A program made the position numbers and the translations under genes. Below the pieces are notes generated by a model. The model saw only the letters and a program-made list of their open reading frames with translations. It searched no databases and had not been told where the DNA came from. A stretch of DNA of 64,000 bases, taken from a virus. The stretch is taken from the IMG/VR virus record IMGVR_UViG_3300025151_000019, positions 1-64,000 of that record; one strand, 5' to 3'. Numbering within the stretch: position 1 is the first letter of the stretch; every line of letters starts with the position of its first letter. Positions 12,105-44,900 of the stretch are shown piece after piece.

Positions 12105-13520
12105 ATGGATTTACTAACCGAAATGGATTTAGAAATGTCAAAGGGAAACTTCCCTTATTTCTTTGAAAAGGTTCTTGGATATGAATTAGCAGACTTTCAT
12201 CAAGAATGGTTAGACCTTGTAAATAACACATCACGAACAGTTATTATTTGTTCACGCGACCACGGCAAATCTGTTTTCTTTCATTCGTGGTGTGTTTATC
12301 AATTATGTTTTCAAGAACCACCATATCAAATGCTATACATTTCATCAAACCATAAACAGACAATGGTTCACATGAAAGACATTGACCGTATGTTCACAAA
12401 CATTCCTCAATTGAAAAAGTTCAAACCGAGAGGTGGGTGGGCGGTTGGTGCTATGCGTTTAACAAACGGTAATGAAATTCTTGAGCGTTCTGTTGGTTCT
12501 CAAATTCGTGGTCTTCACCCTCAAGAAATTATTATTGACGACCCTCTAAAAGAGTTCAGCATGACGGCTATTCAAAGAGTTACTGATTGGTTTTGGGGAG
12601 ATATGATTCCTACACTTCACCATACCGCTTCACTTAGAATGGTAGGGACACCATTTACTTACACAGATATTTTCGTGCAGTTAGAAGAAAACCCTGCATA
12701 CAATGTAGAAAGATACCCTGCTGTTAAACCTGATGGAACAGCACTTTGGCCTAATCGCTGGAGTCTTGAAATGCTTGAAGAGAGAAAGATTGAAATTGGT
12801 TCATCCAAGTTCACAAGAGAATATCTTTGCGTTCCTATCAGCACCAACACTATGCTTTTTCACCCTGATGCTATCAAAGCGTGTAAGAATGACTATGCTT
12901 CGCTTGAGAGCGTTTGTAGGGAGGGCTACCGCTACTTCATAGGATATGACCCTGCTATTTCATCAAATGGAGACTATACGGTGATGATGGTTTTAGAGGT
13001 GGATGATGATATGAATAAACAGGTTGTTCATATGCTTAGAGCAAAGGGTCTTGATTTTAGAGAACACATTAATCATGTAATGGAACTTTGTAGAAGATAC
13101 AAACCAGAAATTGTCATGATTGAAACAAATACATTTGCAAAGGCATTTGCTATGGAACTAAAAAATATCTCGGATTTTCCCGTCAAGGAATTTACAATGA
13201 GCCGAAAGAAAAAGGAAGAGATTATCCTTAACTTACAAATGAATATTGACAATGGGAAGATTGTTTTTCCCATGCAAAACGAAACATCAAGAAATGTTTC
13301 TAATCAAATTATCCAAGAATTAGGTGCTTTTGGAATTAACGCTCACGGTAAAATTGAAGGTGTTGGGGCGCATGACGATATTGTTATTGCGTTGGCTTTG
13401 GCTAACTATGCGACCAAATCCTTTAGCGATACCTTTTTAGACATTGATAGTAGTGGACTATTTAACAGCCCTACTACAACACCGCAGAAGGGAGGTGGAT
13501 TTTATGGTATTAATCTATAA
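12105..13520 (+). CDS. terL: Terminase large subunit
   Basis: Walker A-like SRDHGKS, Walker B IIIDD, GTP coupling motif, nuclease motifs IGYDPA and HDDIVIALALA. Confidence 0.95.
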   Translation: MDLLTEMDLEMSKGNFPYFFEKVLGYELADFHQEWLDLVNNTSRTVIICSRDHGKSVFFHSWCVYQLCFQEPPYQMLYISSNHKQTMVHMKDIDRMFTNIPQLKKFKPRGGWAVGAMRLTNGNEILERSVGSQIRGLHPQEIIIDDPLKEFSMTAIQRVTDWFWGDMIPTLHHTASLRMVGTPFTYTDIFVQLEENPAYNVERYPAVKPDGTALWPNRWSLEMLEERKIEIGSSKFTREYLCVPISTNTMLFHPDAIKACKNDYASLESVCREGYRYFIGYDPAISSNGDYTVMMVLEVDDDMNKQVVHMLRAKGLDFREHINHVMELCRRYKPEIVMIETNTFAKAFAMELKNISDFPVKEFTMSRKKKEEIILNLQMNIDNGKIVFPMQNETSRNVSNQIIQELGAFGINAHGKIEGVGAHDDIVIALALANYATKSFSDTFLDIDSSGLFNSPTTTPQKGGGFYGINL

Positions 13521-14904
13521 GGCTGAAGACCCTATTGATGTTGAGGAACTTGAAGAAAATCTCAATCAGGTTAAAAGAGTTGAAGAACAAAAAAAGGTTC
13601 TTGACGATTCTGTTAAACCTGTAAAAGATAAACTAAAGAATCAATTATCAAAAGGTAATATAAACGAATGGTTGGTAAAACAATATGGAAATGAAATTGA
13701 TATTGTTAAGAATATTTCTAAGGAATTAAATATTAATTTAACTGAGGCTACAAAATATATTGCGCCTCTACCTGTTGAACCTCTAATTGAAGGTAAGACT
13801 ATCCCTTCATTAGTTAAAGAACTAAGAACTATGAGAAGAAAGTTAAAAGGTGCACAAAGAGACACTTTAACAAAAGGTATAGACCATTTAATTACGGCTT
13901 ATGAGCAACATTTACAAAAATCATTAGATACAATTTATTGGTTAAAACCTTATCAGTTAGGTTTTAAGAAAATGGGACATAACCCCACACAAATTCAAAA
14001 ATTATACAACATTAAGGATGGTGAAACAAGAAGTAAAATTATTGAACTCTGTTGTAAAATGTGGGAAACTGATTTAGAGAAAAAGAGTTTAGATTATGGA
14101 ACTGATTATTCTAATTATCATAATAATTTTAACGAGGCTAAAAAAGAATTAAGAAAGTTATTAAAAAATATTCCACATCAATCACTTAGAGATTCAAAAA
14201 AGGATATGATTCAAAAAAGTGTTTTTGAAATTATTTCTAATAATCAGGGGTTATCAGCAAGTGAAGTTCATTCCAGACTAAGCCCTTCTCATTCTAAAAT
14301 TTCTACACCTCAATCTATTTCAAAGGTTTTAAAGAAAATAAATGCTACAAAAGTTAATAGTGAATATTACTTAATTAACAATATTATCAAAAAGGATTTG
14401 TATTCTTATGTTGCTGGCTTTATTGATTCTGATGGCTTTATTACAATGGATGCTTCGTTATCACCAAGAATCGGTATGATTGCTACGGGTAATAGGGGAA
14501 GAGCATTCTTTGAAGAATTAGAAAAAGAGTTAAAATGTGGCCGCCTACACCTTGACCAAAAGGTTGGAGAAAATAACAGAAGTCAGCACAGGCTTAACTT
14601 TTACAAACAGGATGATATTCTTCATGTTCTTGAAAAGTGCCTTCCTCACCTTAGAATGAAGCACACGCAGGGCAAGTTAATTCAGGAGGCTATTAGAATT
14701 AAGAAGAACTTCAAGAAGGCAGATTGGGCTAAGCCGAGACTTGGTGAGATTTTTAAATTAATCAAGTATGAAAATTGGAAGGACTCGGTTACTCAAGGTC
14801 CAAAGGAATTTAAAAAATATGGAATTGACCCCGAAGTAGTAGTTAAATACCATGATAATTCTAAAATGCAACTAATGGATAGTCTTGAAAGTGGGGTGGA
14901 ATGA
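13504..14904 (+). CDS. Helical domain + wHTH-like + LAGLIDADG endonuclease-domain fusion
   Basis: YVAGFIDSDGFI motif; start moved to ATG 13504 after GGAGGTGG. Confidence 0.8.
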   Translation: MVLIYKAEDPIDVEELEENLNQVKRVEEQKKVLDDSVKPVKDKLKNQLSKGNINEWLVKQYGNEIDIVKNISKELNINLTEATKYIAPLPVEPLIEGKTIPSLVKELRTMRRKLKGAQRDTLTKGIDHLITAYEQHLQKSLDTIYWLKPYQLGFKKMGHNPTQIQKLYNIKDGETRSKIIELCCKMWETDLEKKSLDYGTDYSNYHNNFNEAKKELRKLLKNIPHQSLRDSKKDMIQKSVFEIISNNQGLSASEVHSRLSPSHSKISTPQSISKVLKKINATKVNSEYYLINNIIKKDLYSYVAGFIDSDGFITMDASLSPRIGMIATGNRGRAFFEELEKELKCGRLHLDQKVGENNRSQHRLNFYKQDDILHVLEKCLPHLRMKHTQGKLIQEAIRIKKNFKKADWAKPRLGEIFKLIKYENWKDSVTQGPKEFKKYGIDPEVVVKYHDNSKMQLMDSLESGVE

Positions 14905-16544
14905 TGGGTCTTAGAGATTACTTAGGAGGCTTTGTTAAGCGACGAACCCCTACGCCAAACCAAAAAGAAGTCTACAATTTAGGCATTCAGGAAAAAAGAA
15001 ATATTCAGCACATTGTTGGACCTGTTCTTTATGATGTTGCTAATCAATCAACCATTGTTAGAACTTGTATTACTCAATTAAAAACTGAAATTTTCCGAAG
15101 AGGATTTGAATGGAAAAAAGCATTCTACAAAATTTGTAATAAGTGTGATACTAAGCATGAAAAAGAAACTGATGTTTGTAGAAATTGTGGTTCTAAAGAT
15201 TTGAGAGTTCCCTCTCAAGACCAAATTAATTACGCTGAAAAATTCTTTGATGGATATATTAACAGGTCAGAACAAAAATTAATTGATGTTCTAAAAGAAA
15301 TTGAAACTGATTTAAATATTGCTGATGATGCATATTTAATCTTAGTTAAGGAATATTATCTTGATGATAAGGGAAATGTTGTTCTTCATAAAATTAAAGA
15401 AATGTATAGGGGCGACCCATTAACTATGTATATTGATATTGATGAGGAAGGAGATAGAGGTGAAGCACATTATACTTGTATTACACATAGAGAAATTTAT
15501 GATACCGACTCATTAGCAAGGTGTCCTGTTTGTGATTGTAAATTACACCCTGTTCATTATATTAATAGAGTTCACGGAAAAGACCAATACTTTACAAAGG
15601 ATGAAGTTATCCATCTTAGCAAATACAACCCCTCAAGACTTTACGGCTTCTCTCCTATTTTGACGCTATGGAGTCATATTACTACTCTTATTGCTATGGA
15701 AAATTATGTCAATACTTCTTATACTAAAGCGAGAGCACCAAGAGGTATTCTTGCCGTTCAAACCAATAACATGGAATCTCTTGTTAAATATTGGAAGGGC
15801 GTTAAGGAAAAGTTAGAGAAAGACCCTCACTATATTCCTATTATGGGTATTGAAACCGATGGTGGTTCAAGAGGTTCAATTGAATGGGTTCAGTTTATGA
15901 ACACATTAAAAGAGATGGACTACATCAATGTTAAGGATGATTTGAGAGATAGAATTGGTGCTTTCTACGGAGTCAGTAAAATTTTCCAAGGAGATACCGC
16001 TACAAGTGGTGGTTTAAACAACGAAGGTATGCAGATTTTAGTTACTAATCGTTCTGTTGAATTAGCACAAAATGTCTATAATCAATACTTATTCCCATTC
16101 CTTCTAAAGCAATTTGGAATTACAGATTGGACTTTAACGCTACTGCGTTCTGAAGAAGAGGACAATGTGGCTGAATTAAGAAGAAGGGAAATTGAAATTA
16201 ATATTGCAGCCCAAATTAAAAATCTTGGGTTTGAAGTTGATATGGATGAAGATGGAAACTTTATTTATTCTAAACCTTTACCAAAGGAAGAACAACCTAT
16301 GGAAAGAGTCGGCGGTGGAGAGAAAGTTGAAACAGACCCATACGCAGGAACAAATATTGATGCCTCACAATTAGGACAGATGCAAGAACAGATGATGCAA
16401 GGAGGGTCTAAACCACAAGAAAACCCACCAGCAACGAGAAATAAACCATCTATGAGCGTTGGTCCTCCTAATAGAAATATGGGATTGCCGAGAGAAGCGG
16501 CAAATAATAATGTAGATAGAAGAACAGAAAGAAGAGTTGGTTAA
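14901..16544 (+). CDS. Portal protein with Zn-ribbon insertions
   Basis: Position after TerL; portal-like VIHLSKYNP...LYGFSPI and IGAFYGVS segments; CNKC/CRNC and CITH/CPVC pairs. Confidence 0.88.
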   Translation: MMGLRDYLGGFVKRRTPTPNQKEVYNLGIQEKRNIQHIVGPVLYDVANQSTIVRTCITQLKTEIFRRGFEWKKAFYKICNKCDTKHEKETDVCRNCGSKDLRVPSQDQINYAEKFFDGYINRSEQKLIDVLKEIETDLNIADDAYLILVKEYYLDDKGNVVLHKIKEMYRGDPLTMYIDIDEEGDRGEAHYTCITHREIYDTDSLARCPVCDCKLHPVHYINRVHGKDQYFTKDEVIHLSKYNPSRLYGFSPILTLWSHITTLIAMENYVNTSYTKARAPRGILAVQTNNMESLVKYWKGVKEKLEKDPHYIPIMGIETDGGSRGSIEWVQFMNTLKEMDYINVKDDLRDRIGAFYGVSKIFQGDTATSGGLNNEGMQILVTNRSVELAQNVYNQYLFPFLLKQFGITDWTLTLLRSEEEDNVAELRRREIEINIAAQIKNLGFEVDMDEDGNFIYSKPLPKEEQPMERVGGGEKVETDPYAGTNIDASQLGQMQEQMMQGGSKPQENPPATRNKPSMSVGPPNRNMGLPREAANNNVDRRTERRVG

Positions 16545-19609: not shown

Positions 19610-20242
19610 ATGGATTGGGAAAGTAAAACAGATGTAACTATGGACTTTACGGCAGATGCAAGAGGAGAAGATAAAGTTACTGCGGTATTAACGCAATTAA
19701 TTGAAGTTGGAAATTTGATTTCAAATCATCTTGGTAGTCATATTGACCCAAGTGCAAAGGCTACAAGTGGAAAGGCTAAGACTCCTCAACAAGTTGATGT
19801 TACGAGAATGGCTATGAAACCATTAACTGAAGCACAAGAAAAGACGGCTGGTAGTGTATACAAAAATAGACAAATGCCTACACGAGATTATACAGGCCGA
19901 ATAATTTCTAAAGAAGATATTGACGATGTTGTTGATGATAATATGGATGAATATCTAAGAAGGAATCCTGATGAAAGAAGAAGAGATGAAGTTAATGATG
20001 ATGAAGAAAAGGTTTTATTAACACTAACGAGATTTGGTGATGATGAAGAAAAACTTAATCCTGCTATGACCGCACTCTCCATGTTGGATAATGAGGAAAA
20101 GGCTATGGCTAATCCTCTTTCTACTTCGGAAGGTAAAGCACTTCTTTCTGCTCTTAATGAAGCCGCAAATAAACTCCGAGCATTTTTATCAACAACGAGA
20201 GTTGATGCAAGTTCAGCACAAATGCCCCAAGATATGCGCTGA
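19610..20242 (+). CDS. Hypothetical protein with DDEEK/NEEK repeats; core/scaffold-like
   Basis: MDWESK start; three acidic-Lys repeats. Confidence 0.7.
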   Translation: MDWESKTDVTMDFTADARGEDKVTAVLTQLIEVGNLISNHLGSHIDPSAKATSGKAKTPQQVDVTRMAMKPLTEAQEKTAGSVYKNRQMPTRDYTGRIISKEDIDDVVDDNMDEYLRRNPDERRRDEVNDDEEKVLLTLTRFGDDEEKLNPAMTALSMLDNEEKAMANPLSTSEGKALLSALNEAANKLRAFLSTTRVDASSAQMPQDMR

Positions 20243-20251
20243 GGTGTTTAA

Positions 20252-22990
20252 TTGCCTCCAGAAACGGGTAGGATTGACCCTTTATCAAGGTCATTAAGAA
20301 GTCTTTATGATAAGGTTAGAGTTGCATATTTAAGTGCAAGAGAAAGACCTAAGGATTACAAAGACGAATGGAATAAAGTCATTGAAGAAATTCGTGATAA
20401 TTGGGATAGCCCTAACCCTATTGGTGATTTATTAAGAGATGAATTATCCGAATCGTTAATTTATAGCGAAGAGGTAAAAGACCCTCAAGGTGCTAAAGCA
20501 AAAAGAGTTTATCAAAATATTAAGGAAGTTCAAGAACAGACCTCATTAAGTAAAGACCCGTTTAGAAAGAAATTTGGTGAAAAATTACCAAAGTTACTGC
20601 TTAACAATACTCAAGTATATGCTATGTTTTTGCATTGGGCATATAGAGCAGGTCGTGGTGCTTTAGATGGATGGGATGAAGTAGGAGATTTAAAGGATGA
20701 TTTTACAGAAGGTTATGTCGGTTTAGATTTAACAGATGGAGAATTGTTTAGATGGCTTCAGAAAAATTATGGCGACGATGTTGATGTTAAAAGGTTAAAG
20801 CGTAAAATGCAACCAGCAAGAGAAATGCTTTACGAGGTTTATACAAAGGAAAATAGTGCTTCTTCTTGGCAGGAATTAACAGATACTAAGAGAATTTTAA
20901 AACAGGAAAAAATTATTACTGTTAATCAAATTAGATATATGACTGATGATGGTTATAAAAAAGTAAATGTTAATCATATTTTAACATATGAAGATTTAAA
21001 TTTAAATGAAGAATCTTCCGTTGATGAAATAGAAGATGCTATTTTAGATTATTTATCAGGTGTTGAGCCTTATTTAGTTGATGAATTTAATTATACTATC
21101 GGTAGTCAAGGCGACCCAGATTTTTCTACTAAGAATGCTATGCTTAAGGAGGACAAGGAATTAAACGATTTTATTATTCCCAACAAACCTATGTATCGCA
21201 TCTTTGAAATTGACGATATGAAAGAAATTAAGGGCTTTTCAGGAGATTATGTTGTCCAAGAAAAGTATGACGGTATGCGTATTCAAATTCACAAGAATAA
21301 GGAAATTAAAATTTATTCTTTTAACCAAAGAGATATTACCAGAAAGTTTGACAAACAAGTAGAACTTATGCGTAATGATGATTTCCCTGAATGTATTTTA
21401 GATGCCGAAGTTGTTCTTTATGAAAATGATGAACCACTACATAGAGCAGATACTATTTCATACATTAATTCTAAGAAAGACGATTCCGCCTTTGAATTAA
21501 GAGTTCATGTGTTTGATATTATTCGTCTTAACGGAGAACACATTTGGAAGAACAAATTAGAAGAAAGACTTCAAACCTTAATGGGTAATTTTAACAAAGT
21601 TTCTCATAGACAATTACAATTTCCTACAAAATCCAATACCAGATTTGCAGACTCATTAGAGGACATTGAAGAATACGCTATGGAAATTATGAAAAATCCT
21701 ACATCCGAAGGGGTAATTATTAAAGATGCTAAGTCTTCATATATTGTAGGTAAGAAGAAAAATCCAAAGTGGGTCAAATGGAAAAAATTTGTTGATTTGG
21801 ATTTATTAATTTTAGAGGTTAGAAAGAACAAAAATGGAACATTTAGTTATACATTGGGTGCTGGACCTTTAGGAGATGAAGAGTATAAACCCGTTGTTCG
21901 TTACAAAAATAAAGATTATCTAAATGTTGGTAAGGCTCTTAATACTAAAATTAAATCGGAAGAGGGTAATATCATCCGAGTTAAGGTTGATGAAGTTAAG
22001 AAAACAAAAAAGGGTTTCTCAATTTATAGTGCTAAGGTTATTGAAAAGCCCGAAGTTACTGAGCCAGAAAAAATTATTACCCTTGAGTTTTTATCTAAAG
22101 ACAATAAAAAATCTGCATCTGATTATGCAATTGAAGCCCTTACAAAATCATATTCAATCACAGATAATGTTCACGGTGTTGTAGATTTAAACACATCCTA
22201 TGATACAGAAGGATTTGTTTTATCAGGATTTTTACAAAATAATTTAATGGCTAAAAATGCTATGATAGATATTGATTTGTGGAAACAAGAACTTGCTCAA
22301 ATTTACAAAAAAGATAGTGGTAAATTAATGAGTATTATTTCTGAAATTGTATATGAGGGTGAAATTACAAAACAGGACTTAATTAAGAAATTAAAAGAAA
22401 AGGCACCTGATATTATTAAGAGAATTTTTTCTGATGGGGATATTGAAAAGGGCTTGGCTAAATATATTAAAGAAAGAGGTGAAGCCTTTGGTATTTTATA
22501 CAATAAAGAGAGGCAGAAGTTTTATCATGACGATAAAACATTAGTCAAAGACCCAGAAAATATCGGAAAGATGGAAGATAATACCTATGAAATTTGGAGA
22601 AGAGAGGACGGAGATTTAAATTTTATTTATCAAATTAAAGAAAAAACATTTGCGTGGCGCATTGAGCAGGATAAAATTGAGGATATGTATGAATTGTTCG
22701 GAAAGGCTGAACGATTTTTGGCTGAATATGATAAAGAACCACAGAAGGATAAGAAGGTTGATGAGGGAACAATTAAAATTGGTTCTCAAAGAGATGGCTA
22801 TCACGAATATTTCCTAAAGGGTAAAATGTATTCGGGTAAGATTCATTTCCGAATTGTTAAAATTATGGAAGAAGATAAGTGGATTGTCTTTACTGGATAT
22901 AAAGAAGAGCCAACAGACAAAGATAGTGATGAAGGATTGTGGGATATTTCGGAAGATAAATATATAAATATTACATTTTCTGAAGAATAA
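20252..22990 (+). CDS. lig: Multidomain ATP-dependent DNA ligase with N-terminal extension and C-terminal LigD phosphoesterase-like domain
   Basis: Motif I EKYDG, III ILDAEVV, IIIa VFDII, IV EGVIIK, V WVKWK, then OB domain; TTG start after GAGGTG. Confidence 0.88.
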   Translation: MPPETGRIDPLSRSLRSLYDKVRVAYLSARERPKDYKDEWNKVIEEIRDNWDSPNPIGDLLRDELSESLIYSEEVKDPQGAKAKRVYQNIKEVQEQTSLSKDPFRKKFGEKLPKLLLNNTQVYAMFLHWAYRAGRGALDGWDEVGDLKDDFTEGYVGLDLTDGELFRWLQKNYGDDVDVKRLKRKMQPAREMLYEVYTKENSASSWQELTDTKRILKQEKIITVNQIRYMTDDGYKKVNVNHILTYEDLNLNEESSVDEIEDAILDYLSGVEPYLVDEFNYTIGSQGDPDFSTKNAMLKEDKELNDFIIPNKPMYRIFEIDDMKEIKGFSGDYVVQEKYDGMRIQIHKNKEIKIYSFNQRDITRKFDKQVELMRNDDFPECILDAEVVLYENDEPLHRADTISYINSKKDDSAFELRVHVFDIIRLNGEHIWKNKLEERLQTLMGNFNKVSHRQLQFPTKSNTRFADSLEDIEEYAMEIMKNPTSEGVIIKDAKSSYIVGKKKNPKWVKWKKFVDLDLLILEVRKNKNGTFSYTLGAGPLGDEEYKPVVRYKNKDYLNVGKALNTKIKSEEGNIIRVKVDEVKKTKKGFSIYSAKVIEKPEVTEPEKIITLEFLSKDNKKSASDYAIEALTKSYSITDNVHGVVDLNTSYDTEGFVLSGFLQNNLMAKNAMIDIDLWKQELAQIYKKDSGKLMSIISEIVYEGEITKQDLIKKLKEKAPDIIKRIFSDGDIEKGLAKYIKERGEAFGILYNKERQKFYHDDKTLVKDPENIGKMEDNTYEIWRREDGDLNFIYQIKEKTFAWRIEQDKIEDMYELFGKAERFLAEYDKEPQKDKKVDEGTIKIGSQRDGYHEYFLKGKMYSGKIHFRIVKIMEEDKWIVFTGYKEEPTDKDSDEGLWDISEDKYINITFSEE

Positions 22991-22999
22991 CCCTATTCC

Positions 23000-23010
23000 T
23001 TTATATAATA
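23000..23010 (+). promoter_or_regulatory. Putative archaeal TATA box for the protease-capsid operon
   Basis: TTTATATAATA 20-30 nt upstream of ATG 23030, which has no SD (leaderless spacing). Confidence 0.5.
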
Positions 23011-23029
23011 GTTAAACAGATGTATTAAC

Positions 23030-24268
23030 ATGACTCTTAGGGTAAAGCCGATTCGTCTGGGAAACAAACCCTCTTCAGGTTCGGAATTAGTTATTCTTAA
23101 GGGAACAGGAAAGGATATGGTTATTGCTGGATATGCATCCGTGGATGTAGTAGATAAGCAAAACGATTTAATTACATTAGAAGCACTAAGAGATGCTTCG
23201 GACAAATTTATGAAGAGTGATTATAAGAATGTAATGATTACTCATTCAAATGTGCAGGTGGGAGAAGTTATTGACACCTATACAGATACAAAAGGCAATG
23301 TTCTAAAAACGGGCGTTGATGATACAGGATTCTTTGTTGTTATCAAAATGAGGAACGACATTGAGAAAGCGAAGGAGGTTAGCCGTGATATTAGAAGAGG
23401 CAAACTTCGCTCTTTCAGCATCGGTGGACAGGCTATTAACAAGCACAATGTTCACGACCCCGATATTGGAACATACAAAGAAATAGATAAATTAGAACTC
23501 CACGAAATCACTATTTGTGAAGAAGGGATTAACCCTGAAGCCAAATTTGAGATTGTGAAAGAAAACAAAAAAGGAAGTGAAACTATGACTGACGAAATTA
23601 GTAAGGCTTTGGCCGAATTTGAAGACCTCGTTTCTCAACTACGAAATCAAACGATTTTGAAGGATGATTCAGACGATGAAAAGATGTATGCCGACAAAGA
23701 AAAGATGGAAGACGACGATGAGGAAAACATGGAATACAAGGCTGAAGACGACGATGAAGAGATGATGGATGATACCGAAGAAAAGGCGATTGATTCCACC
23801 GTTTATGGACACAATGCAACGGGACAAAAAATGGGTGAGGCTAACCTTACGGGTCGTTATGATTCGGAATTTAGCCAATTCCTTGCCCGAAAGTCCGAAC
23901 AAATTCAAACGCTTGACCTTTCCGATGAAAATATCGCAAAGGCTTATGCTCAATTCAAGGCCGAAAAGGAAGAAGAGAGAGCATATGATGTTATCAAGGA
24001 ACAATTTGAGGCTCGCTATCAGGCTGAATTAGCAACTGAGGCAAACGCTATTGCAAAGGAGAACTATGATGCACACGCTGAAGTGGCCGCATTAAAGAAC
24101 GAATTTGCACAACTGCGAAAGTCGCTTAACTCCCATAAGGAAGTTATTGCAAAGCAGGCTGTCCCAACCACGCAACCAGCAATTAGTGAAGATGTTATTG
24201 CTAAGATGAACAACCTTCACGAAATGTCTTGGGATGAAATTAACGAATTGGTGCGTGAACTACAATAA
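23030..24268 (+). CDS. HK97-type prohead protease fused to scaffold domain
   Basis: IAGYASVDVVDKQND, His, SFSIGG, ELHEITIC..G.NPEA; acidic coiled-coil C-terminal half; directly upstream of MCP. Confidence 0.92.
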   Translation: MTLRVKPIRLGNKPSSGSELVILKGTGKDMVIAGYASVDVVDKQNDLITLEALRDASDKFMKSDYKNVMITHSNVQVGEVIDTYTDTKGNVLKTGVDDTGFFVVIKMRNDIEKAKEVSRDIRRGKLRSFSIGGQAINKHNVHDPDIGTYKEIDKLELHEITICEEGINPEAKFEIVKENKKGSETMTDEISKALAEFEDLVSQLRNQTILKDDSDDEKMYADKEKMEDDDEENMEYKAEDDDEEMMDDTEEKAIDSTVYGHNATGQKMGEANLTGRYDSEFSQFLARKSEQIQTLDLSDENIAKAYAQFKAEKEEERAYDVIKEQFEARYQAELATEANAIAKENYDAHAEVAALKNEFAQLRKSLNSHKEVIAKQAVPTTQPAISEDVIAKMNNLHEMSWDEINELVRELQ

Positions 24269-24282
24269 AGGAAGTGAAAAAA

Positions 24283-25608
24283 ATGTCAGGATTAAACCAA
24301 ATTAGAACAATTCAAGATTTAGAAGCCGCAACCTACGGCAACCTCGGAACCAACTCTCTTTTGAAGGGATATGGTATTGGGGCTGGTGTAAATACGGGCT
24401 TGCATACCGATTCTTCAACGGGCGCATTTAGCCCCAATGCACTTTATAACTTAGTGTATGGGCAAAAAGTGTGGTCTATGTTGAACCGAGAAATTAACGC
24501 TTTTGCTATGCTTCCTAAGAAGCCGTGGTCGTCAAGTGGTTGGCGAATTATGACTGAGCGAGCAATTGGTGGTGCTGGTGATACAATTAGTATTACTGGT
24601 GGAACTGGTCAAGGTTCAATTACTGAAGGTGTTATTGGTGGTGTTGCAGAAAACGCCGCATTTACTACCGCAGTTACTGATGCTTTTTCCCCTATTGCAC
24701 CTCGTTATGAAACGCTTTATGTTTCGCCTAAGACGATTGCACATCAGTTTGAATTAAGTGAACTTGCTGCTGCTATGGCTCAAATTGATGATGGTATCGG
24801 TGATTTAATGGCCGCATACCGTGAAGAAGTCGGTGTTACTCACGCAGAAATGATGAATCATATGCTTTTGACTCCTCTTGAAAGCATGGTTACTGGTTCA
24901 AACCCTGCTATGGTTACTGGAGTTACCAATAATATTACCTCCCTTTACAAGATTGTTTCTAACCAAGCAGAATTAGCAAATGCTGATGGTGGAAACCTGT
25001 TTAGCGGTGCTTATTCTCACGCTGATGCTGAGGAACTTAGAACGCTTTACGGTAAAGACCGATATAATAGCGGTGGCGTTGCCCTTACTTACATGGAGTC
25101 CTATGTGGATTACGGTGATTATTCTGGTAGCCGAAGACCTCTTACTTTGAATATGCTTAACACGGCTCTTCGTGAGTTGCAAATTCGTGGTGCTTCACCA
25201 AAGGTTATTCTTACGGGCTATGATACTATTCAGGCTCTTGGTGAATTACTCCAATCTCAAGAGAGATACATGGGTAGAACTGAAGTTATGCCTACCGTGA
25301 ATGGTATTAAGGGTGTTAAAGGCCGAGAAGTTGGTTTCAAGGTCGCTACTTATCACGACATTCCTATCATTCCTTGTAAGGAAATGGGTTCAACGGGAAG
25401 CGGCTCAGGTCTTTCGGATATTTTTATCCTTGATACCGACCATTTCCACTTCGCTACGCTTAAGCCAACCGAATACTTTGAGGGTGGTATTGATTCGGGC
25501 GACCCATTCGGTGTCGGAAAGTTGGGCAACCGAGGTATGTATAGAACCATCGGTGAAGTTGTCTGCACTTGGGTTAGAGCACAGGGTAAAATTACCAACC
25601 TCTCTTGA
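24283..25608 (+). CDS. Major capsid protein (HK97 fold)
   Basis: Follows the protease; ~440 aa; GGAAGTGA SD before ATG 24283; capsid-like ATYHDIPII and IFILD segments. Confidence 0.88.
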   Translation: MSGLNQIRTIQDLEAATYGNLGTNSLLKGYGIGAGVNTGLHTDSSTGAFSPNALYNLVYGQKVWSMLNREINAFAMLPKKPWSSSGWRIMTERAIGGAGDTISITGGTGQGSITEGVIGGVAENAAFTTAVTDAFSPIAPRYETLYVSPKTIAHQFELSELAAAMAQIDDGIGDLMAAYREEVGVTHAEMMNHMLLTPLESMVTGSNPAMVTGVTNNITSLYKIVSNQAELANADGGNLFSGAYSHADAEELRTLYGKDRYNSGGVALTYMESYVDYGDYSGSRRPLTLNMLNTALRELQIRGASPKVILTGYDTIQALGELLQSQERYMGRTEVMPTVNGIKGVKGREVGFKVATYHDIPIIPCKEMGSTGSGSGLSDIFILDTDHFHFATLKPTEYFEGGIDSGDPFGVGKLGNRGMYRTIGEVVCTWVRAQGKITNLS

Positions 25609-26215: not shown

Positions 26216-26566
26216 ATGTTTCGCATTAGACATACATTGAGTCCTTGTAGGATTTATGGAACGCTTTATTACCCTAATACTTGGTATGAGGTTTCCCCTC
26301 AAGTCTACAATAAAGTCCGAAATGCCGCAGGTTGGGAAGTTGAATCTCTTGAAGAAGAAACGGTTGAGGCATCTGCTAATGAAACCGTTGAAGAAGTTGT
26401 GGAAGAAACCGTTGAAGAGGTTGAAGAAACCTTAGAAGTGGTTGATGAATCCATTGACTTGTCCACCTTGAAAAAGGCTGAATTACAGGCTCTTTGTGAT
26501 GAAAGAGGTATTGAATATAAACCTCTTGATACAAAGGCTAAGTTAATTTCCCTATTAGAAGATTGA
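26216..26566 (+). CDS. Acidic protein with C-terminal HeH/LEM(SAP)-like motif
   Basis: DLSTLKKAELQALCDERGIEY...TKAKLISLL; EETVEE repeats. Confidence 0.75.
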   Translation: MFRIRHTLSPCRIYGTLYYPNTWYEVSPQVYNKVRNAAGWEVESLEEETVEASANETVEEVVEETVEEVEETLEVVDESIDLSTLKKAELQALCDERGIEYKPLDTKAKLISLLED

Positions 26567-31960: not shown

Positions 31961-34201
31961 ATGGTATCAAATGAAGTATGGATGGGTTCAGGACAAAGCG
32001 TTACGATGATTCCCGAAAGTGAATTATTCTTAGGCTATATGCCCTTCGGCCCAACCTTAGGAAGAACAGGAACGAACAGAAGTCATTTAATCAAGTATTC
32101 TCTTGGTTATGCTTTAGATGGAACAGGAGTAACTATCGGAACAACAAAAAAGTTTTCCGATTATTATGAATTAGTTCCTGATTTGTATATCGGTTGCACC
32201 GCTAAATTTTATTACACTACTGATTCATCAGCCGCAACTCTTAGATTTACAGCAAGAGTGGCCGCTAATGATGCAGATGCTATTTATTTTTCAGGTAATA
32301 TTGATGATTTTAAATCATTGTATAATAAAGACACACCTACTGCAACAAACCCAAGAGGTTATATTGTGTTAGAAGCAAATGGGGCAGTTGTGCCTGCACC
32401 TCATTCATATGAATTAATTGATAGTGCAGTAACCAGCACAAATGCTGGCGACTCTACTATTGGTTCTGTTTTAGGTAATGGGCAAAAGTTTGTTATTGGT
32501 GATATTATTAGAAATTCATCGGGGACCGAAGTAGGTAGAGTTATTACTACTTCTACTGACGGAAGTTTAACGGCTACTATTACTGACCCTACATCCTCTT
32601 CAACACATTTACATCTTATTACTTCTTCAATCGGGACTGTAAGTGGAACTCCCTCTCTTGCTTCAACAAGCATTAGCACAATTACTACTTCAGTTAATTT
32701 AACTGGAACTCTTACTGCTGGTGATTGGATTAGTATTCATTCATCAGCGACGGTATCTTCGTCTACTCAGGCGGGTAGAGTTATTTCTACTACTTCTACT
32801 ACTGTTAAAGTGGGCCTAATTGCTGCATCTGATAATCCTGCTAATGGGGAACATATTTTCTTGGGTAAAAGAATTACAGATGGTAATGGGCATACGACAG
32901 TTTATAGAGTGTCCCCAAGAACACTTTCTAATCATTGGCTTGGTTTAACTAATTCTATTACTTACCCTACAACAGATATTGAGATGAAGCAAATGAATTT
33001 GTCTTTGGGTGGAACGAGAAACTTTAGTTATCAATATAAGGGTATGGAAACTTCGGGTCAAGCATCACTTGATATTAATTTAAATCACGGTGCTTGGTTG
33101 CTTTATGCATTCGGAAGTTTGTCAAGTGTTTCTGCTACTAAAACGGCAGATAGAACCCACACTAACAATTTCCAAATTGATTCTGCTGATACCGCTTCAA
33201 ACCATTTACTTTATGCAGGTGTTAATACTGATGCTGATGATAGAGCATCTTCAGGACATACAACTCTTAATGGAAAATTCCACAGAACTTTAAAAGGTTC
33301 TACTGCTCTGTGTCCTCCGCTATTACCAAACACCAGCGCATTTTTAGTTACTGCCCCAACAACTAATGTCTCAAGTGGGGCATTACAGGATGGTATTACA
33401 TATACTTTGGCTGAGAGCAACGATGCTAAACTCCCCTCGTTTGCTATGGAGTTATTGGTTCAAAAGCCATCTGTTTTGGATGGAACTTCTCAATCATTAA
33501 TGGTTGATAGAAACACATACAACGAAAGCGTGTATGCTCAAATCTATCCTCGCTTGGTTGTTTCTGATATGTCCTTGAGTGCAAATGAAAATGAAGAACT
33601 TAAGGCTTCTATTAATCTTAACAGTAAGACTGTCTTTGAAGCACCCGATGGTTATGTTGGAAAGTGTTATGATTCTACAAATAACGACACTACGGAGTTT
33701 AAGAATTTGCTTAACTTTGGACAACAGACTGGCGTTAATACACAAATTGAACAAAGTTTCTTAGACCCATTCTTTTTCAGCAACGGTAGCATTTCATTAT
33801 TTGGACAGGAATTCCTCAAGGTTTCCTCCTTTTCTCTCAACATCCAAAATGGTGTTGCTGACAAAAGATATGTTGGACAATACAACAACCGTATTAAAGA
33901 CTATGTTACGGGTCAAAGAACCTATGAAGTAACTATTACCGCATTAGTTACCGATAGAAGAATCTTTGATGAACTTAGAAAACTCTCCCCGAATCGTGTT
34001 GCATTGGGTGATGCACTAATTGATTTAGAATTTACTAAAGAAAATGGTGAAAGCATTACTCTAAACTTTGACGACTACATGATTTCTACAACAAACTGGC
34101 CTTTGCAAGATGATAGAGGTCCAGTATTAGTAGACTTTACAATCATGCCGTTAAGAGTCAATAGCGTTAGCACTACGACTCATTGGGTTATGCAATCTTA
34201 A
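31961..34201 (+). CDS. Major tail tube protein with large Thr/Ser-rich insertions
   Basis: C-terminal FSLNIQNG...GQRTYEVTITA tube-like segment; precedes chaperone and TMP. Confidence 0.75.
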   Translation: MVSNEVWMGSGQSVTMIPESELFLGYMPFGPTLGRTGTNRSHLIKYSLGYALDGTGVTIGTTKKFSDYYELVPDLYIGCTAKFYYTTDSSAATLRFTARVAANDADAIYFSGNIDDFKSLYNKDTPTATNPRGYIVLEANGAVVPAPHSYELIDSAVTSTNAGDSTIGSVLGNGQKFVIGDIIRNSSGTEVGRVITTSTDGSLTATITDPTSSSTHLHLITSSIGTVSGTPSLASTSISTITTSVNLTGTLTAGDWISIHSSATVSSSTQAGRVISTTSTTVKVGLIAASDNPANGEHIFLGKRITDGNGHTTVYRVSPRTLSNHWLGLTNSITYPTTDIEMKQMNLSLGGTRNFSYQYKGMETSGQASLDINLNHGAWLLYAFGSLSSVSATKTADRTHTNNFQIDSADTASNHLLYAGVNTDADDRASSGHTTLNGKFHRTLKGSTALCPPLLPNTSAFLVTAPTTNVSSGALQDGITYTLAESNDAKLPSFAMELLVQKPSVLDGTSQSLMVDRNTYNESVYAQIYPRLVVSDMSLSANENEELKASINLNSKTVFEAPDGYVGKCYDSTNNDTTEFKNLLNFGQQTGVNTQIEQSFLDPFFFSNGSISLFGQEFLKVSSFSLNIQNGVADKRYVGQYNNRIKDYVTGQRTYEVTITALVTDRRIFDELRKLSPNRVALGDALIDLEFTKENGESITLNFDDYMISTTNWPLQDDRGPVLVDFTIMPLRVNSVSTTTHWVMQS

Positions 34202-37661: not shown

Positions 37662-38963
37662 ATGACATTTAGCGTTTATAACAAGGACAACAAATGTTTA
37701 GTTTTTCCTACAATGTGTGATGCACATATTTTAATTGATTATTCAAAACATAATGGGGAAGTTAATACGGGTCTTTGGGCAACCGAAGGTTCATTTACTT
37801 GTCAGTTTGTAATTAAGCCATATGATGTAAATGGTTATGGTGATAATACTGCTGAGACTCAAGTTAATCTAACAGATAATGGTGGTGCTGGTAATAACTC
37901 AAATCGCAAAACTATGCCAGCAGTAGCAGATAGTGTTTCAGCACTTGCAGATAATCAAGACCAAAGATATTTACCTAATAACCAAAGGTATGACCACGCT
38001 ATGTGTTTATTCCATAATACAAACTTAAAAGTTTCTTTAGTAAATACAACTACTTATAACCAAAATAATCCTGCTGAATATAAAATTCAATTTAAACTAA
38101 CTGTAAATGGAACAGAAACTACTCTTGAATCACCTACTGTATTTACAAGTCGTAAGCATCATTATCATGATATGTCAAGTGTTGTTACAAATAATTCTGA
38201 ACAGGGTTCAGCAATTACATTATGGAATAACTATCACTTACAATTTTTATACAAGGGTTTTAAAATCATTGGAAGAGAAGCAGGACAAAAGAAATTTTAT
38301 CATAGTGGTGGGGGATATTATGAAGGATATACATTAAAAGTAACACCTGCTTCAACACCTACTTCTGCATATGACAGTTCAACAAGAGTAGTTAGTCTTA
38401 CATTTAATGACCCTATACCCACAGATGCACCTACACCTCAAAATGCTATTCCTGTTGGTTGTGAAATATTTAATGATAGGGGAGAGTCATTGGGAACAGT
38501 TGCTACTCATGTTCCTAAAGCGGGAGTTATTACACATCATTCTATTGTTATGAATGCATTACCCGCAGGTTCTACTGCACCAACATTAACAAACGGTTCT
38601 AAAGTTTATGTCCCTGTTCATCGTGAACCTATGTATATTCAAACATCAGCCCATGTTGCAGTAGGATATGAAGAGGCTACAAGACGAATGAGTATTTTTT
38701 ATAACGGTGTTGAGATTGCATCTGGAACTCACGGTGCAACAACAGGAAAGTTTTCATTGGATGAGAGTGATATTTATATTGGAAAGAATGCATCGTTAAG
38801 TTATCCCAATGATAGAAAAACACAATACATGGGAGAAATGAATTATATTGTATTTACAGATGAATACACAAATACATTTACATCTTTATTTAATCCAATT
38901 GCACCAAAAGAATCAATTAAACTATACTATGATTTTAATGAAGGGAGGAAATTAAATGGGTAG
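37662..38963 (+). CDS. Tail protein with split LamG/concanavalin-like domain
   Basis: HVAVGYE...MSIFYNGVEIA...IYIG...YMGEMNYI. Confidence 0.65.
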   Translation: MTFSVYNKDNKCLVFPTMCDAHILIDYSKHNGEVNTGLWATEGSFTCQFVIKPYDVNGYGDNTAETQVNLTDNGGAGNNSNRKTMPAVADSVSALADNQDQRYLPNNQRYDHAMCLFHNTNLKVSLVNTTTYNQNNPAEYKIQFKLTVNGTETTLESPTVFTSRKHHYHDMSSVVTNNSEQGSAITLWNNYHLQFLYKGFKIIGREAGQKKFYHSGGGYYEGYTLKVTPASTPTSAYDSSTRVVSLTFNDPIPTDAPTPQNAIPVGCEIFNDRGESLGTVATHVPKAGVITHHSIVMNALPAGSTAPTLTNGSKVYVPVHREPMYIQTSAHVAVGYEEATRRMSIFYNGVEIASGTHGATTGKFSLDESDIYIGKNASLSYPNDRKTQYMGEMNYIVFTDEYTNTFTSLFNPIAPKESIKLYYDFNEGRKLNG

Positions 38964-41900
38964 AGCAGTAACAAATGTTAATATTTCTCAAATTATTGCA
39001 TTAAATAAAGGAGTTCCTTTACTTAGTCCTATTGCTTGGCCTTACATTTCTCCTAATTATACAGAATTAATTTATAATGATAGTAGCACTATTAAGAGTG
39101 CATTTACTAATGTTAGTCTTAATCCCAGAATTATTACTGTTGGTAGCACAGAAATTCTTACCGCAGGAGTAAAAAGTATTAATTGTTATGAAATTCATAA
39201 CGCACCTACCGCTACTGTAAATAGTGATTCAGTTTTTGAAATTTCTAACATTGATGCGTTTAATGCTGATGGAGAAGTTGATACAATTTTAAACAGACTT
39301 TATCCCTATGACACAAATATTGAAAGTTATCTTACTGTTTCTGCATCATCAAGTGGTAATAGAATTAATTTGGAAGGGCAAGGTGCTTTATCTAATTTAA
39401 TTTCTTCAGGCTCTCTTGACACTACTTATGATTACTTTGTTTTAATTCATGCCGATGATGCAAAAAATCACCACCTTGCTAAAATTACAGAACTGCATAC
39501 CTATGAAACTTTTGGAGATGGTTTTGATTTTGCCCCTGCGTTTGTAGGTGATATTCCAAAAGATACAAAAATTAGTATTTACAAAGGTCCTGCTGCAAGT
39601 GATACACATATTGTAGCAGTAGGTTATGGATTGTTAGGAGATGCCGACGATTCTGATGGAAGACACGATACATATGTTGAAGTTAGCAGACCTACCTTTT
39701 ATTTTTACGAAGATAGATGTGATAAGGATAAACTTTCAGCAAACACTAAATATAGAATAATTAAAAATATGGCCTATGAAATTAGTTCTACTTTAAAATT
39801 AGATTTTGGTTTAAAATATACTGCTTCGCAATCTGATGTAGGGGCAACACCAGGAATTTCTGCTCATGGAACTACTGTTCACTTTTTAACCACTTCAGAC
39901 TATGGAGGATATATTATAGATAAAACGGGATATTCTCAATATGGTGAATTGGTAGATAGTTTAGCAGAAGCAGATAGAACAATTTCTGTTCTTGCTGACT
40001 CATCATACTCTAATGCTATTTCTAATAGAACTCCCGTTAGTAATTGGACTACCAATACATACAATAAAACAACTGCAATTCAATTAGGAAAATGGAGTGA
40101 TTCATTTATTAATTCAATGAGAGATACCCATAACACATCAACAGGTGTTAGTTCTAATACATATGATTCACCAGTTAAAAGAATTGTAACTTATGAAAAT
40201 TCTGATTTAAAAAATTATCATCTACCTCATATTCAGTATATTGATTTATTTGATTCTGTTGCCTCCATTGGTAATTTTATGGAAATGAAATTTCCAGATG
40301 CTAACAAAATTCTAAATTTTAAATTGAAAAATTTTGATAATGTTCTTGTGAAGAAAGAAATTAATTCTGAAGATTATAGCGGTGCTATGAATGTCCAATT
40401 GCCTGGAGTTGTTTCTTCAAGCACTACGGGCTGGTCATTAACTTTTACACAACTAAATGTTGGACAAGACTTTAGAGATATTTGGGGTAGTTCACTTGTA
40501 ACTACAGAAAATACAAATAAACTTAGAGTAGGAGATTTTATTTTTGCGGGAGATTTTACAAGTGCGCCCACTATTGGTGTTAATGGTTATGAACAAATTT
40601 TTGCTATTACACATTATAGAAATATAAGAACCGACTATACATGGACAGCCACTTCTTCAAATTGGAGTTTGGATGCTATTGAGGATGGTAATGCATTTGT
40701 ATATCCGTTTATGAACAAGGAAGGAGTAATTGTCGCAGGATTTGATATTGATACGGAATATGATGGTGCTAATATTAAAAGAAACGGTAATACAGTTTCT
40801 GGAGTTGATAACTTTATTGCAAATACAGAAGTTTTGGTTCGTGATAAAGAACTTACAGGTTTTACTTTTGATTTAAATTACGGAGATAAGAATTTAAATT
40901 ATGTAAAACCAAAGACTACCACTTATGATGGGTATCAAATAAGAACGAGAATCCGAGGAACCGCTTCAAGAAATACCGTTCCTAATATTCCTGAACTTTA
41001 TAGTTATATTAACGGGGATATTCTACATTTAGATAAAGTATTTGATGGCTACATTGAGTCAATTAAGAGCAATATTCAGGGTGGTATAGTTAGTTATGAT
41101 ATTTCAGGTAGAGATTATACCAACCGTTTGTTAGATTCGGTGGTCAATAAAAACTTTACACACACTAAAGACTACATTTTTACAACCGTTTCCCCTGAAG
41201 CAGACATGAATACTCAGTCGGGAACGGTATATATTCAGGACTTTGATATGGGTTCTACTACTATTGTTGTTTCTTCTAATAGCACCTCTACCACACCAAC
41301 CCTTGAATTTGGAGTAGGAGATGTTATTTATTGCACACTTAAAGCGCAGACTAAACTATTGGGTATTGTAAGTGCTACTGCTATTAAAACAGGTGGTAGT
41401 GGAGGTTTTACATTAGGAACATATTGGAATGGAAGCGCACATGTAGCATTTACTTCAAATGCAAAGGCTATTGAAATTACACTAACTGAACCTACCCTTT
41501 ATTCATCTTACAATAAAGATTATGGTGCTGTTAATCTCAAGTATTCTAAAAAGGCTACATCATTAGGAAAAGCATTATCAGCAAACACGAGTGATTCTAT
41601 ATTTCCTACAACTTTAACTGGGTGTTCTAATAAAGGTATTATTTATAGAAGTGGAGAAAAAATTAGTATTACAACAGGAGCATATGATTCTGATTTAGTA
41701 GAAGCATCAGCAAATGAAAGTAAATTTTCAATTGGTTATCCTATTTCAAATATTTCTGGAAGTAAATCTAATACTAATTTTGCAGATTACAGATTTAGTA
41801 TTTCTTCTGATAAGGCTGAAACTAATATTACACAAAATGATACCATAAGTAGTTCTACTGAATTTGCTGTTGTTGGAAGACAAGTATCAGAAAATGAATC

Positions 41901-44900
41901 AATTTTAAGTCTTGCACCTATTTTTCCAGTAGTATTAGCAAAAACATCTTCTAATACATCAGACACAAGAATTAGTAATGGTAATGGTTTATACTTTGTA
42001 AATACGCAAGGGTTATCTAACGGAGGATTTTTACATTTATTAGATAGTGAAACAAGTTCAGTAGGAGCAAGTATTACATTTAGAAGTCCTGGCTACAAGG
42101 ATTTTTCATCGGGTGTAGATTCTATTGATTATAGACTTGAAGATAACTTTGGTGCTTTTATTTGGAGATATTCAGGTCTTCAAACAGCAGACTTATTTTG
42201 GGATTCAGAATATCTTGACAAAGTATGGGATATGAAAAAGGATGATATTTTTACTCCTACTAATAGAGTAGTAGATACTGGATGGTTTCAAAATTTAATG
42301 TATGGAGAAAAAAGTCCTGTGAAGGGTTATGCTATTGCACAGAGAATTAACTATGACGGCGTTGGGGTTGATTTCGGAACAGAAACTAATTTTACTAATC
42401 ATTATCAAAAGTTAGGTTCTCCTGAAAGTAGAGATGGTTTTTATCCTATTATTGGCTCAAGATTTTGGGACATAGATAAAATGTCAGATACATTAGCAAG
42501 TGTTCATTATGTTAAAACAAAGGCAGTTGTTCAAACCTTTGAAGATAGAAATAATAGTCTTAGAAGTTATTATCCTCAAATTTCAAGAAGAGGAGGAAAA
42601 CCTGCTGCTGATTTTAGTAGTTGGTCTTTAACTAAATCAAGACAATCATTTGAATCTTTTGATAGAAATACTGAAAATTTTTATTTATTTTCTACTGGGG
42701 ACATTTATCCAGATAGTTATAAAAGAACAAATAGTATCGGATATGCAAATAGAAATTTACAAAAATATTCAGTTGTTTTAAAATCACAAGGTTCGGATTC
42801 ATTAACAACTACTAATCACGAAAATTATAAAGGTTCAACACCTTCTAATTTAGTTTCAGATGCTTCTTTTGAAATTTTACCTATACAATCTTCAAATGTA
42901 AATACTTCAGAATTAAGAAGATTTGGTTTAGTAAGACTAATTGAAGCAACTTATGATTGGCATTTCAATGAAGTAGATTATGAAAATTTACCAACTGAAG
43001 TAAAAACAGAATTGAGCGAGTATTCAGTTGTTGCACCTGCTGGTAGTATTATTGAACATGAACCAGAATTGCAAGATTTAACTGCTGGTTCTGCTTATGG
43101 AGAACCTTCAGTTACTGGATTTGGTATTGAATTTATTTCTTCTTCTACTACTTATCCTGTTGATACTAACCCACCGTCAGGTGCTGAAGGCTATGCATTT
43201 TATCAAGTAGATAGAGCACCAAAAGCAGGTGCTTCTAAAAATATTTATAGCGGATATTTATACACGGACTTTATTAATTTTAATACAGGTTCAACTAATA
43301 AATTTGGAGAATATGATGTTGAAGAATTAGGTAGAGTCCTTGATAAAAACCCACATAATAATTCTGATGATGCGGCATGGGTTAGTCTTACAGGAGTTAT
43401 TACTGCTTCAGATTTAGTAGGTAGGATTACTTCTGGTGGAACAGATGGAGGCAGAACAGGAAATACTTATAACAATGTTGGGGTAAGCAGTTCATCTGGT
43501 TCTAATTTAAAATTAACAGTAGTAGTTAATGGTAGTGGAACAGTTACTGCAATTACTCCTTATGAATATGCAAGCGCACGAATTACAGGAGTTACTGTAA
43601 AACATAGAGGTTCAGGATATACGACAAGTAATACCTTAACAATAGCAGGTAGTAGTATCGGTGGCGGTGCAGATGTAGTTATTACTTTAGATGCGGCAGA
43701 TATTTCTACCGAGCATAGAATTTATGTTAGGGGAGATGTGGCTGGTCAAGACATTTATGAGACTAATATTGGTTCTACATCTACTCTTGGAAGAAGTTAT
43801 ACTGGATTTTTAAAATATAATGATATTGCTAATGTAAAGGCAGGTGACAGTCCAGCACTTAAAATTAATGATGGTTCATTTAAAAATGCATTATCTAATA
43901 GCGCAAGTGGGGATGGGCCGAGACTAATGAATTTAGGTTTTATTATTGGTGCAACTGGAGATAATAATCCAGGCAGTAACGGTGATTTAGCATACTTGGG
44001 TAAAGATGAATTATCGCCTACTACTGTTCATAATGCTGGTGTAAAACAAACTGGTTATGATTTAATTTTACCCATTTACTTTTCGGCAGGAGGAAGTAGG
44101 ACAAATAAACATGATAAATTTTTAAAGGACATACCTTCTAATCATGGAAATGGTGGAAGGTTATCTACTAAATCATATGATAATAACTTTGAACTTTCAA
44201 GAGTTATAAATGAACTTGCTCAATGGGATGAAGATACTATCATTAGTTATACTGCTAATGCTACTATAAATCCTCTTGGTATTGGTGCAAGTCAATTATA
44301 TACTGATACAATTGGTATTATTAAAAATTTAAAAATGGATAATCATACTAAAATAGAATATACTGAGGGTCGTAATCGTTATCAAGTTGAATTATCTAAT
44401 TATGATGGTGCTACTATTCCTAACTTACACATTTCTTATCTTGAAGGTGATGGAGCAAATAAATACTTTAGTATCAAATATGCTTTTGATTTTACAAACG
44501 CTACATCTTGGAAGAATGAAACAAAAGGACATACAGGTAGCGGTATGCCTTCAACTGTGGGTAGTTTAGGTTTATTTGATGCTAATAGACATGGGTTTGC
44601 CTCAAATACCGATAACATGGTGGGTGCTGAATTTTACTTTAAAATGGTATTAAATACAGGTGCTTCAAATATTACTGTATTTGATACAGACAGTATTACT
44701 CAGACTACTAATATTCCATCTTCTACAAGTTTAAAAAGTAATACACAAATTCAAGGTAGAGCAATTATTAGAATTACTACCCCTGATTTAACTAATCATG
44801 CAAACAACGGTAAAAATGCTGCAACTCCAACAAATAACGGTCCCTTTAATAAAAACAATTTGTGGATTAATTTTGTAAATGATTTAACAGGATATTATTT

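Follow-up and report, generated by a model that had tools for sequence, protein, structure and literature searches.

A composite DNA ligase with a winged-helix-like domain and a predicted phosphoesterase-fold barrel, encoded beside the prohead protease of a magrovirus

The DNA analyzed here (the window) comprises 64,000 nucleotides, positions 1 to 64,000 of IMG/VR virus record IMGVR_UViG_3300025151_000019. The virus genome is complete (95,639 bp, with terminal repeats) and is that of a magrovirus, an assignment that the literature fits. At positions 20,252 to 22,990, in the structural module and directly upstream of the prohead protease gene, lies a gene for a 912-residue DNA ligase. An intact ligase core is joined in this protein to a winged-helix-like domain and to a C-terminal β-barrel that, in the predicted model, has the fold of the LigD 3'-phosphoesterase (PE) domain without its canonical catalytic residues. 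The reading that we prefer, though we hold it to be evenly balanced between right and wrong, is that of a late, composite ligase that would seal nicks and ends in viral DNA at about the packaging stage. In surface seawater, few viruses of archaea are as abundant as the magroviruses.

The presence of a second ligase at a fixed place next to the head protease has drawn comment since 2017. Magrovirus groups A and B were found to carry a ligase embedded in the structural module besides the replicative one, and the magrovirus ligases were inferred to have been acquired independently (Philosof et al. 2017, PMC5434244). The structural-module ligase of that report belongs to the same gene family and has the same placement as the gene described here, and both ligases are present in our genome; the core observation was therefore already published. 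What is new is the composite architecture within this known virus gene, i.e., the union of a ligase with a winged-helix-like domain and a noncanonical PE-fold barrel, along with a family-only N-terminal helical domain, a hypervariable insert, and a conserved TATA box between ligase and protease. The N-terminal domain, insert, winged helix, barrel, and promoter after the gene are not described in the portion of PMC5434244 used here.

Domain architecture

The gene is read from a TTG codon, and its relatives begin at the same site with M-P (alignment A1, the ligase family with 21 relatives). The predicted domain order is a helical N-terminal domain, an acidic insert, the adenylation domain, a presumed OB domain, a conserved block, a winged helix, and a PE-fold barrel, as follows.

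20,252–22,990, + strand: structural-module DNA ligase gene (P0001), 912 aa, TTG start, TAA stop
20,252–20,863, + strand: all-helical N-terminal domain, residues 1–204 (AlphaFold2 predicted local distance difference test, pLDDT, 83.6)
20,864–20,902, + strand: short helix SWQELTDTKRILK, residues 205–217, resembling scaffold tail helices
20,903–21,148, + strand: hypervariable acidic insert, residues 218–299, flanked by ...ILK and ...MLK (alignment A1)
21,164–21,787, + strand: nucleotidyltransferase (adenylation) domain with motifs I–V, residues 305–512 (Pfam, alignment, and PDB profile)
21,788–22,045, + strand: presumed OB-fold domain, residues 513–598 (placement after motif V, 72% conservation)
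22,046–22,309, + strand: conserved β-hairpin and long-helix block, residues 599–686, containing K632 (68% mean identity)
22,310–22,549, + strand: winged-helix-like domain, residues 687–766 (VIA, moderate support)
22,577–22,912, + strand: LigD 3'-phosphoesterase-fold β-barrel, residues 776–887 (Foldseek and VIA on the predicted model)
22,913–22,987, + strand: acidic C-terminal tail, residues 888–912 (sequence and alignment)

The C-terminal barrel and winged-helix-like domain

Comparison of the modeled barrel with the PDB by Foldseek gave LigD PE structures as all of the top seven matches (E values of 3e-4 to 5e-3, probability 1.0). VIA-align matched it to 3P43 with Z = 11.0 (root-mean-square deviation of 2.6 over 103 residues), to 3P4H with Z = 10.6, and to 3N9B, 5DMP, and 2LJ6 with Z = 9.3, 8.4, and 7.7, respectively; a Foldseek-independent VIA pass over 48,161 representative chains placed PE structures at ranks 1 and 2. 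The clusters nearest to the barrel in the ESM Atlas carry PF13298, which we take as a lead only. By these values the C-terminal barrel, in the predicted model, has the LigD PE fold. A preliminary description of this DNA, made from the letters alone, had likened the C terminus to LigD phosphoesterases and had named a different fold there as evidence against its view; Foldseek and VIA analysis of the predicted model bore out the likeness and did not yield such a fold.

By sequence, the barrel lies outside the PE family. LigD_N (PF13298) gave no match to the protein or to the six-frame translated genome (Pfam, E ≤ 10), a phmmer search of the barrel against the PDB retrieved no LigD PE match, and hhalign assigned a probability of 0.1% to its relationship with 11 alphaproteobacterial LigD PE domains. 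The only local alignment offered by hhalign, of KIHFR.. with LHYDFR.., was set aside as noise. Circular permutation of the barrel was also considered and then dropped because VIA aligns the domains collinearly.

The best structural matches are the stand-alone archaeal PE proteins CkoPE (3P4H) and MbaPE (3P43), which share the eight-stranded barrel over 95 to 103 aligned residues at only 12 to 18% identity. In these enzymes His9, His15, and Asp17 bind manganese, and Arg19 and His51 (with Tyr55) bind phosphate (PMC3082917). All of these metal and phosphate residues are absent from the magrovirus barrel: the PE catalytic His/His/Asp/Arg would fall at R784, N790, I792, and Q794, as judged from range offsets that agree for 3P4H and 3P43, and the conservation table (59 sequences) contains no conserved His at residues 805 to 850, where the phosphate-binding His would be expected. 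In the same 59 sequences, R784, D786, Q846, R847, Y850, H851, E852, Y853, K863, H865, and R867 are 93 to 100% conserved, and W802 and W877 are also among the noncanonical conserved residues. The barrel thus appears to lack the metal site (His-His-Asp) as well as the phosphate site (Arg/His) while keeping another near-invariant set of Arg, His, Lys, Tyr, and Glu residues. Absence of the H-x-D-x-R motif had been noted at the outset and was confirmed by Pfam, hhalign, and the conservation table. The accompanying term "degenerate" is too weak for a domain in which about ten polar residues are nearly invariant; such conservation indicates a barrel that is divergent and constrained rather than a decaying relic. 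This relocated polar cluster provides a natural test of a second active site versus a pure end-binding module.

Residues 687 to 766, which precede the barrel, resembled the winged helices of cullin WHB, forkhead, IclR, PadR, and Hel308 proteins with Z scores of 6.4 to 8.1, a range termed common for VIA. A tail composed of winged helix and PE fold suggests an enzyme built as a break-repair ligase rather than a replication ligase, and that build directs attention to ends or nicks in the DNA, whether during packaging or on entry.

The ligase core and its conventional counterpart

Residues 326 to 511 matched PF01068 with an E value of 1.1e-28 (100.8 bits versus a cut-off of 26.2), and the protein also matched phrog_114 of PHROGs. 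When the family profile built from the 21 relatives was searched against the PDB, the best solved relatives were DNA ligases throughout, of archaeal and Lig1 types (E = 1.8e-17). K338, D340, G341, and R343 (the KxDG motif I, with K338 as the catalytic Lys), D384 and E386, F421 and D422, E486, G487, and K491, and K509 and K511 are invariant among the 21 relatives, and these motif I–V residues are unchanged down to 41% identity. Judged from these residues, the ligase chemistry is intact and strongly constrained; the ATP-ligase core recognized in the preliminary description is upheld by the Pfam match and the invariant motifs. PF04679 (DNA_ligase_A_C) was not matched by this protein (Pfam, E ≤ 1 to 10), and the block at residues 599 to 686 was of low pLDDT when modeled without the ligase core.

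We consider it highly improbable that the enzyme has RNA as its substrate or that it caps or joins molecules other than DNA. Weak, sub-threshold Pfam matches over the core (mRNA_cap_enzyme, 25.6 versus 29.6 bits; RNA_ligase, 24.0 versus 27 bits) point in that direction, as does the action of LigD PE enzymes on 3' ribonucleotides (PMC3082917). The DNA-ligase model scores far higher (100.8 bits), however, every one of the closest relatives of known structure is a DNA ligase, and cross-matches of this kind are usual in the nucleotidyltransferase superfamily.

The genome encodes another ligase in the replication block at ∼65 kb, which matches PF01068 and PF04679 and is a standard Lig1-like enzyme with 29% identity to the core of the head-block ligase; this conventional ligase serves the replication block. 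Among phage GenBank records, the head-block ligase matched only the ligases of SPbeta-type Bacillus phages, at 27% identity over the core.

Bacterial LigD, the nonhomologous end-joining enzyme with ligase, 3'-phosphoesterase, and polymerase domains, likewise combines an ATP ligase and a PE-fold barrel in one chain. The magrovirus protein differs in its order (ligase, winged helix, and PE), in having no polymerase domain (no such match was found by Pfam in the ligase protein), and in its core, which resembles archaeal and Lig1 ligases (E = 1.8e-17) more closely than it does Mycobacterium tuberculosis LigD (E = 0.11). No Ku protein (PF02735) was detected in the complete genome at E ≤ 0.1. Mycobacteriophages Omega and Corndog encode Ku and circularize the incoming genome by means of host LigD. 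They offer a parallel, in which end-joining-type enzymes serve a virus at its own genome ends, but they bring Ku, whereas the magrovirus brings a ligase and PE fold without Ku.

The N-terminal domain and variable insert

The N-terminal domain appears, from sequence searches, to be restricted to this ligase family. An exhaustive phmmer search of 1.84 billion representatives yielded 36 hits, all of them ligase-family members or fragments on ∼1-kb contigs. Foldseek found nothing below E = 0.4 for its fold in the PDB, the wide VIA comparison returned only generic helical bundles (Z < 8), and BFVD contained one family member and nothing else. Stand-alone N-domain or PE-like proteins were rejected as a class since the short matches are contig-end fragments on ∼1-kb contigs, a reading that leaves out P0141 (185 aa, on a 7.5-kb contig) and P0188 (361 aa, on a 65-kb contig). 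Most of the N-terminal domain is missing from ligase forms of ∼680 to 705 aa.

The acidic insert of about 80 residues noticed in the preliminary description is real: it comprises 82 residues, with 17 Asp/Glu versus 6 Lys/Arg. In alignment A1 its mean identity is 10% at an occupancy of 51%, compared to 71% identity for the ligase core, and it is absent from relatives of ∼835 aa, in which RI-LKEDK runs unbroken. The junction between N-terminal domain and ligase core is an insertion hot spot that holds 0 to ∼190 aa of unrelated sequence among the relatives (A1 columns ∼225–480), and the borders of the insert in the present genome repeat L-K.

Conserved placement and transcription

The surrounding genes of the structural module are the following.

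12,105–13,520, + strand: terminase
14,901–16,544, + strand: portal
20,243–20,246, + strand: GGTG, a putative ribosome-binding motif, read directly from the DNA
23,000–23,007, + strand: TTTATATA, an archaeal TATA-box-like element in the 39-nt spacer (22,991–23,029), 23 nt before the protease ATG
23,030–24,268, + strand: S78 prohead protease with a fused C-terminal half that is acidic and scaffold-like, the downstream neighbor of the ligase
24,274–25,608, + strand: capsid protein
31,961–34,201, + strand: tail tube

Between portal and ligase, also on the + strand, lie genes for a 794-aa MSWQLILK-tagged protein, a 79-aa mini-scaffold, and an acidic 214-aa open reading frame (ORF); the replication genes (ERCC4, PD-(D/E)XK, PolB, and RFC) occupy the opposite strand from ∼48 kb.

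The ligase family is large and marine, with more than 791 protein clusters and at least 554 loci in IMG/VR that carry the gene. The position directly before the prohead protease, as first described for this window, is conserved: of the 66 viral loci with enough downstream sequence, 64 have the start of the protease 30 to 118 nt past the ligase, and the capsid gene comes next in all 39 loci (39/39). This placement is kept across relatives of 43 to 90% identity, while the neighboring small genes vary. A survey of 185,579 species genomes located the family at only five loci, all on contigs of metagenome-assembled genomes with the order portal-ligase-protease-capsid, one from Altibacter sp. EAC109 and four from a single Maricaulis sp. 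IN14 bin (L003–L007). These are probably misbinned virus contigs rather than sources of cellular ligases, and such contigs may lie behind the "uncharacterized bacteria" given as relatives of the magrovirus ligase in the pertinent part of Philosof et al. 2017.

The GGTG motif lies 6 to 9 nt before the TTG start and 1 nt past the stop codon of the upstream gene (20,240–20,242), an arrangement that suggests translation of the ligase within an operon with the upstream genes. TTTATATA occurs only once on the + strand of the 64 kb, and its two copies on both strands compare with 9.4 expected. Of 65 distinct spacers between ligase and protease in relatives, 61 contain a TATA-like element; the corresponding figure for windows of equal size within the ligase gene is 5%. 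The element is likely the promoter of the protease-scaffold/capsid unit; by this arrangement the ligase is the last gene of the preceding unit, and protease and capsid have a separate, conserved promoter. In RNA libraries from a salt marsh, which contain relatives of ∼90% identity, the long, deep contigs begin at positions equivalent to 23,047 to 23,303 and span protease to capsid, and the ligase is represented by short contigs of depth 2 to 5; because genes cannot be ranked by contig depth and carried-over DNA may be present, we take these contigs only as compatible with a promoter at 23,000.

The placement could also be a frozen accident, in which a general second repair ligase, acquired and of end-repair type, was inserted once by the protease gene and acts throughout infection, independently of head assembly, on viral DNA that is damaged or has been nicked by the host. 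The break-repair-type domain set of the protein (PE fold and winged helix) and its location outside the capsid promoter unit agree with this explanation, as do the independent magrovirus ligase acquisitions inferred in the part of Philosof et al. 2017 (PMC5434244) that concerns them. We regard it as quite unlikely, given that 64 of 66 loci retain the position despite deep divergence, though small neighboring genes vary, that neither Ku nor a polymerase domain is available for a full end-joining pathway, and that the N-terminal domain is confined to this viral family.

Scaffold-like helix and lysine sites

The helix at residues 205 to 217, SWQELTDTKRILK, can be aligned gap-free with the C-terminal helix of the protease-scaffold, SWDEINELVRELQ, and with that of the 79-aa mini-scaffold, DWKDIDELVVRLS. 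A whole-genome regular-expression search for the long motif, devised after the motif was seen, recovered only the ligase, the protease-scaffold, the mini-scaffold, and two N-terminal tags. Conservation of the helix is partial, its RILK part being lost in relatives below ∼50% identity. The N-terminal tag [SKNT]-W-x-x-[IL]-[LIV]-K (MSWxxILK) was found by regular-expression scan in ∼25 ORFs, with the ligase, which begins MPPETGRIDPL, not among them.

The four Lys sites quoted in the preliminary description exist, at K217|Q218, K299|E300, K632|S633, and K773|M774. Sites 1, 2, and 4 are in predicted linkers of low confidence, the linker of site 4 being rich in indels, and site 3 (K632) is inside the conserved, probably folded block. 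In the capsid protein itself, L29 and K31 are conserved among five relatives of 52 to 60% identity (24,274–24,370, alignment A4) as part of x-L-L-K, with G/A/S next; this LLK at residues 29 to 31 may be a site of the hydrophobic-x-Lys type that is cleaved during maturation. Complex prediction for the capsid protein (alignment A4) with ligase residues 186 to 232 gave a score of 0.00, which counts neither way.

These features bear on the view that the ligase is packaged cargo: the internal helix would load it into the procapsid, the S78 protease would clip it after ILK/MLK-type lysines, and the protein, possibly pre-adenylated, would be ejected with the genome and seal or circularize the incoming DNA. 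In bacteriophage T4, the internal proteins and Alt are loaded into the prohead by capsid-targeting sequences and trimmed by the gp21 prohead protease. T4 is the model for such cargo, but its tags are N-terminal, whereas the magrovirus candidate helix is internal and recognized here from sequence. The neighborhood resembles a prohead core, with the tagged protein, mini-scaffold, and acidic ORF upstream and the protease-scaffold downstream; the gap-free alignment of the helix to the scaffold tail, in a motif otherwise limited to two N-terminal tags, the flanking of the hypervariable insert by ILK and MLK, the linker locations of sites 1, 2, and 4, and the ligase position conserved over 43 to 90% identity all agree with loading and clipping. 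The capsid L-L-K before G/A/S would suit a protease site of the hydrophobic-x-Lys type. Nevertheless, we judge packaging unlikely, if deserving of serious attention. The N-terminal MSWxxILK tag of the ∼25 candidate cargo genes is missing from the ligase, RILK is gone below ∼50% identity, forms of ∼690 aa are without most of the N-terminal domain, site 3 is in a conserved and probably folded block, the conserved promoter parts the ligase from the scaffold-capsid unit, and the regular expression was written post hoc. Furthermore, we know of no tailed virus that packages a ligase. The more specific proposal, that N-terminal domain and insert are removed at the ILK/MLK lysines in the procapsid and that the ligase/winged-helix/PE core, possibly pre-adenylated, travels with the DNA into the archaeal host and there seals or joins the genome ahead of any viral gene expression, seems to us rather unlikely. 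No result supports the earlier depiction of the protein as a polyprotein cut by the prohead protease, nor does any support its packing into virions; the absent MSWxxILK tag, the loss of RILK below ∼50% identity, and the intervening TATA box speak against packaging. If packaging were true, the magrovirus enzyme would be the first DNA ligase found to be packaged by a tailed virus, and enzymes of genome repair would be added to the few proteins that such viruses inject.

A proposed role around packaging

Our preferred reading, of a ligase that acts on viral DNA about the time of packaging, does not need the protein to be in the particle. The ligase would be produced together with the upstream head-region genes on the portal side and would seal nicks or breaks in new viral DNA at or near the packaging stage. 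As modules that bind DNA and 3' ends, the winged helix and PE-fold barrel would deliver the ligase core to nicks or ends or, less likely, would form a divergent end-healing site. Support comes from the intact ligase core, from the two ligases in one complete genome, from the fixation of this one upstream of the protease-capsid genes, from the PE fold, its conserved polar residues, and the winged helix, and from GGTG before the gene and the conserved TATA element after it. In T4, efficient packaging needs ligase-sealed, nick-free DNA, and we count this precedent in favor.

Several points weigh on the other side. Timing and substrate are conjectural, the link to packaging is drawn from gene position only, and the scaffold-like helix and prohead-core-like neighbors suit packaged cargo at least as well. 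Within the protein, the OB domain of the head-block ligase is presumed, and the PE active-site residues were mapped by range offsets rather than by superposition. Also relevant is a 116-aa ORF (26,216–26,566) that PHROGs assigns to endonuclease VII, in which a long acidic linker rich in V/E connects a short N-terminal part to a C-terminal HeH/SAP-like DNA-binding motif. We rejected this assignment since the nuclease core is absent and only the HeH/SAP-like motif matches (Pfam Endonuc-dimeris and HeH); consequently, no debranching partner is confirmed beside the ligase.

Other genes

The terminase-portal interval contains a 486-aa ORF (13,444–14,904) with no Pfam or PHROG match that is conserved in relatives (38–60% identity, L003 and L007). 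The tail region holds a 2515-aa ORF (38,956–46,503). Within the replication block, a gene of the GMP reductase/IMPDH family (56,543–57,583, − strand; PF00478, E = 4.6e-89) represents an auxiliary gene of nucleotide metabolism.

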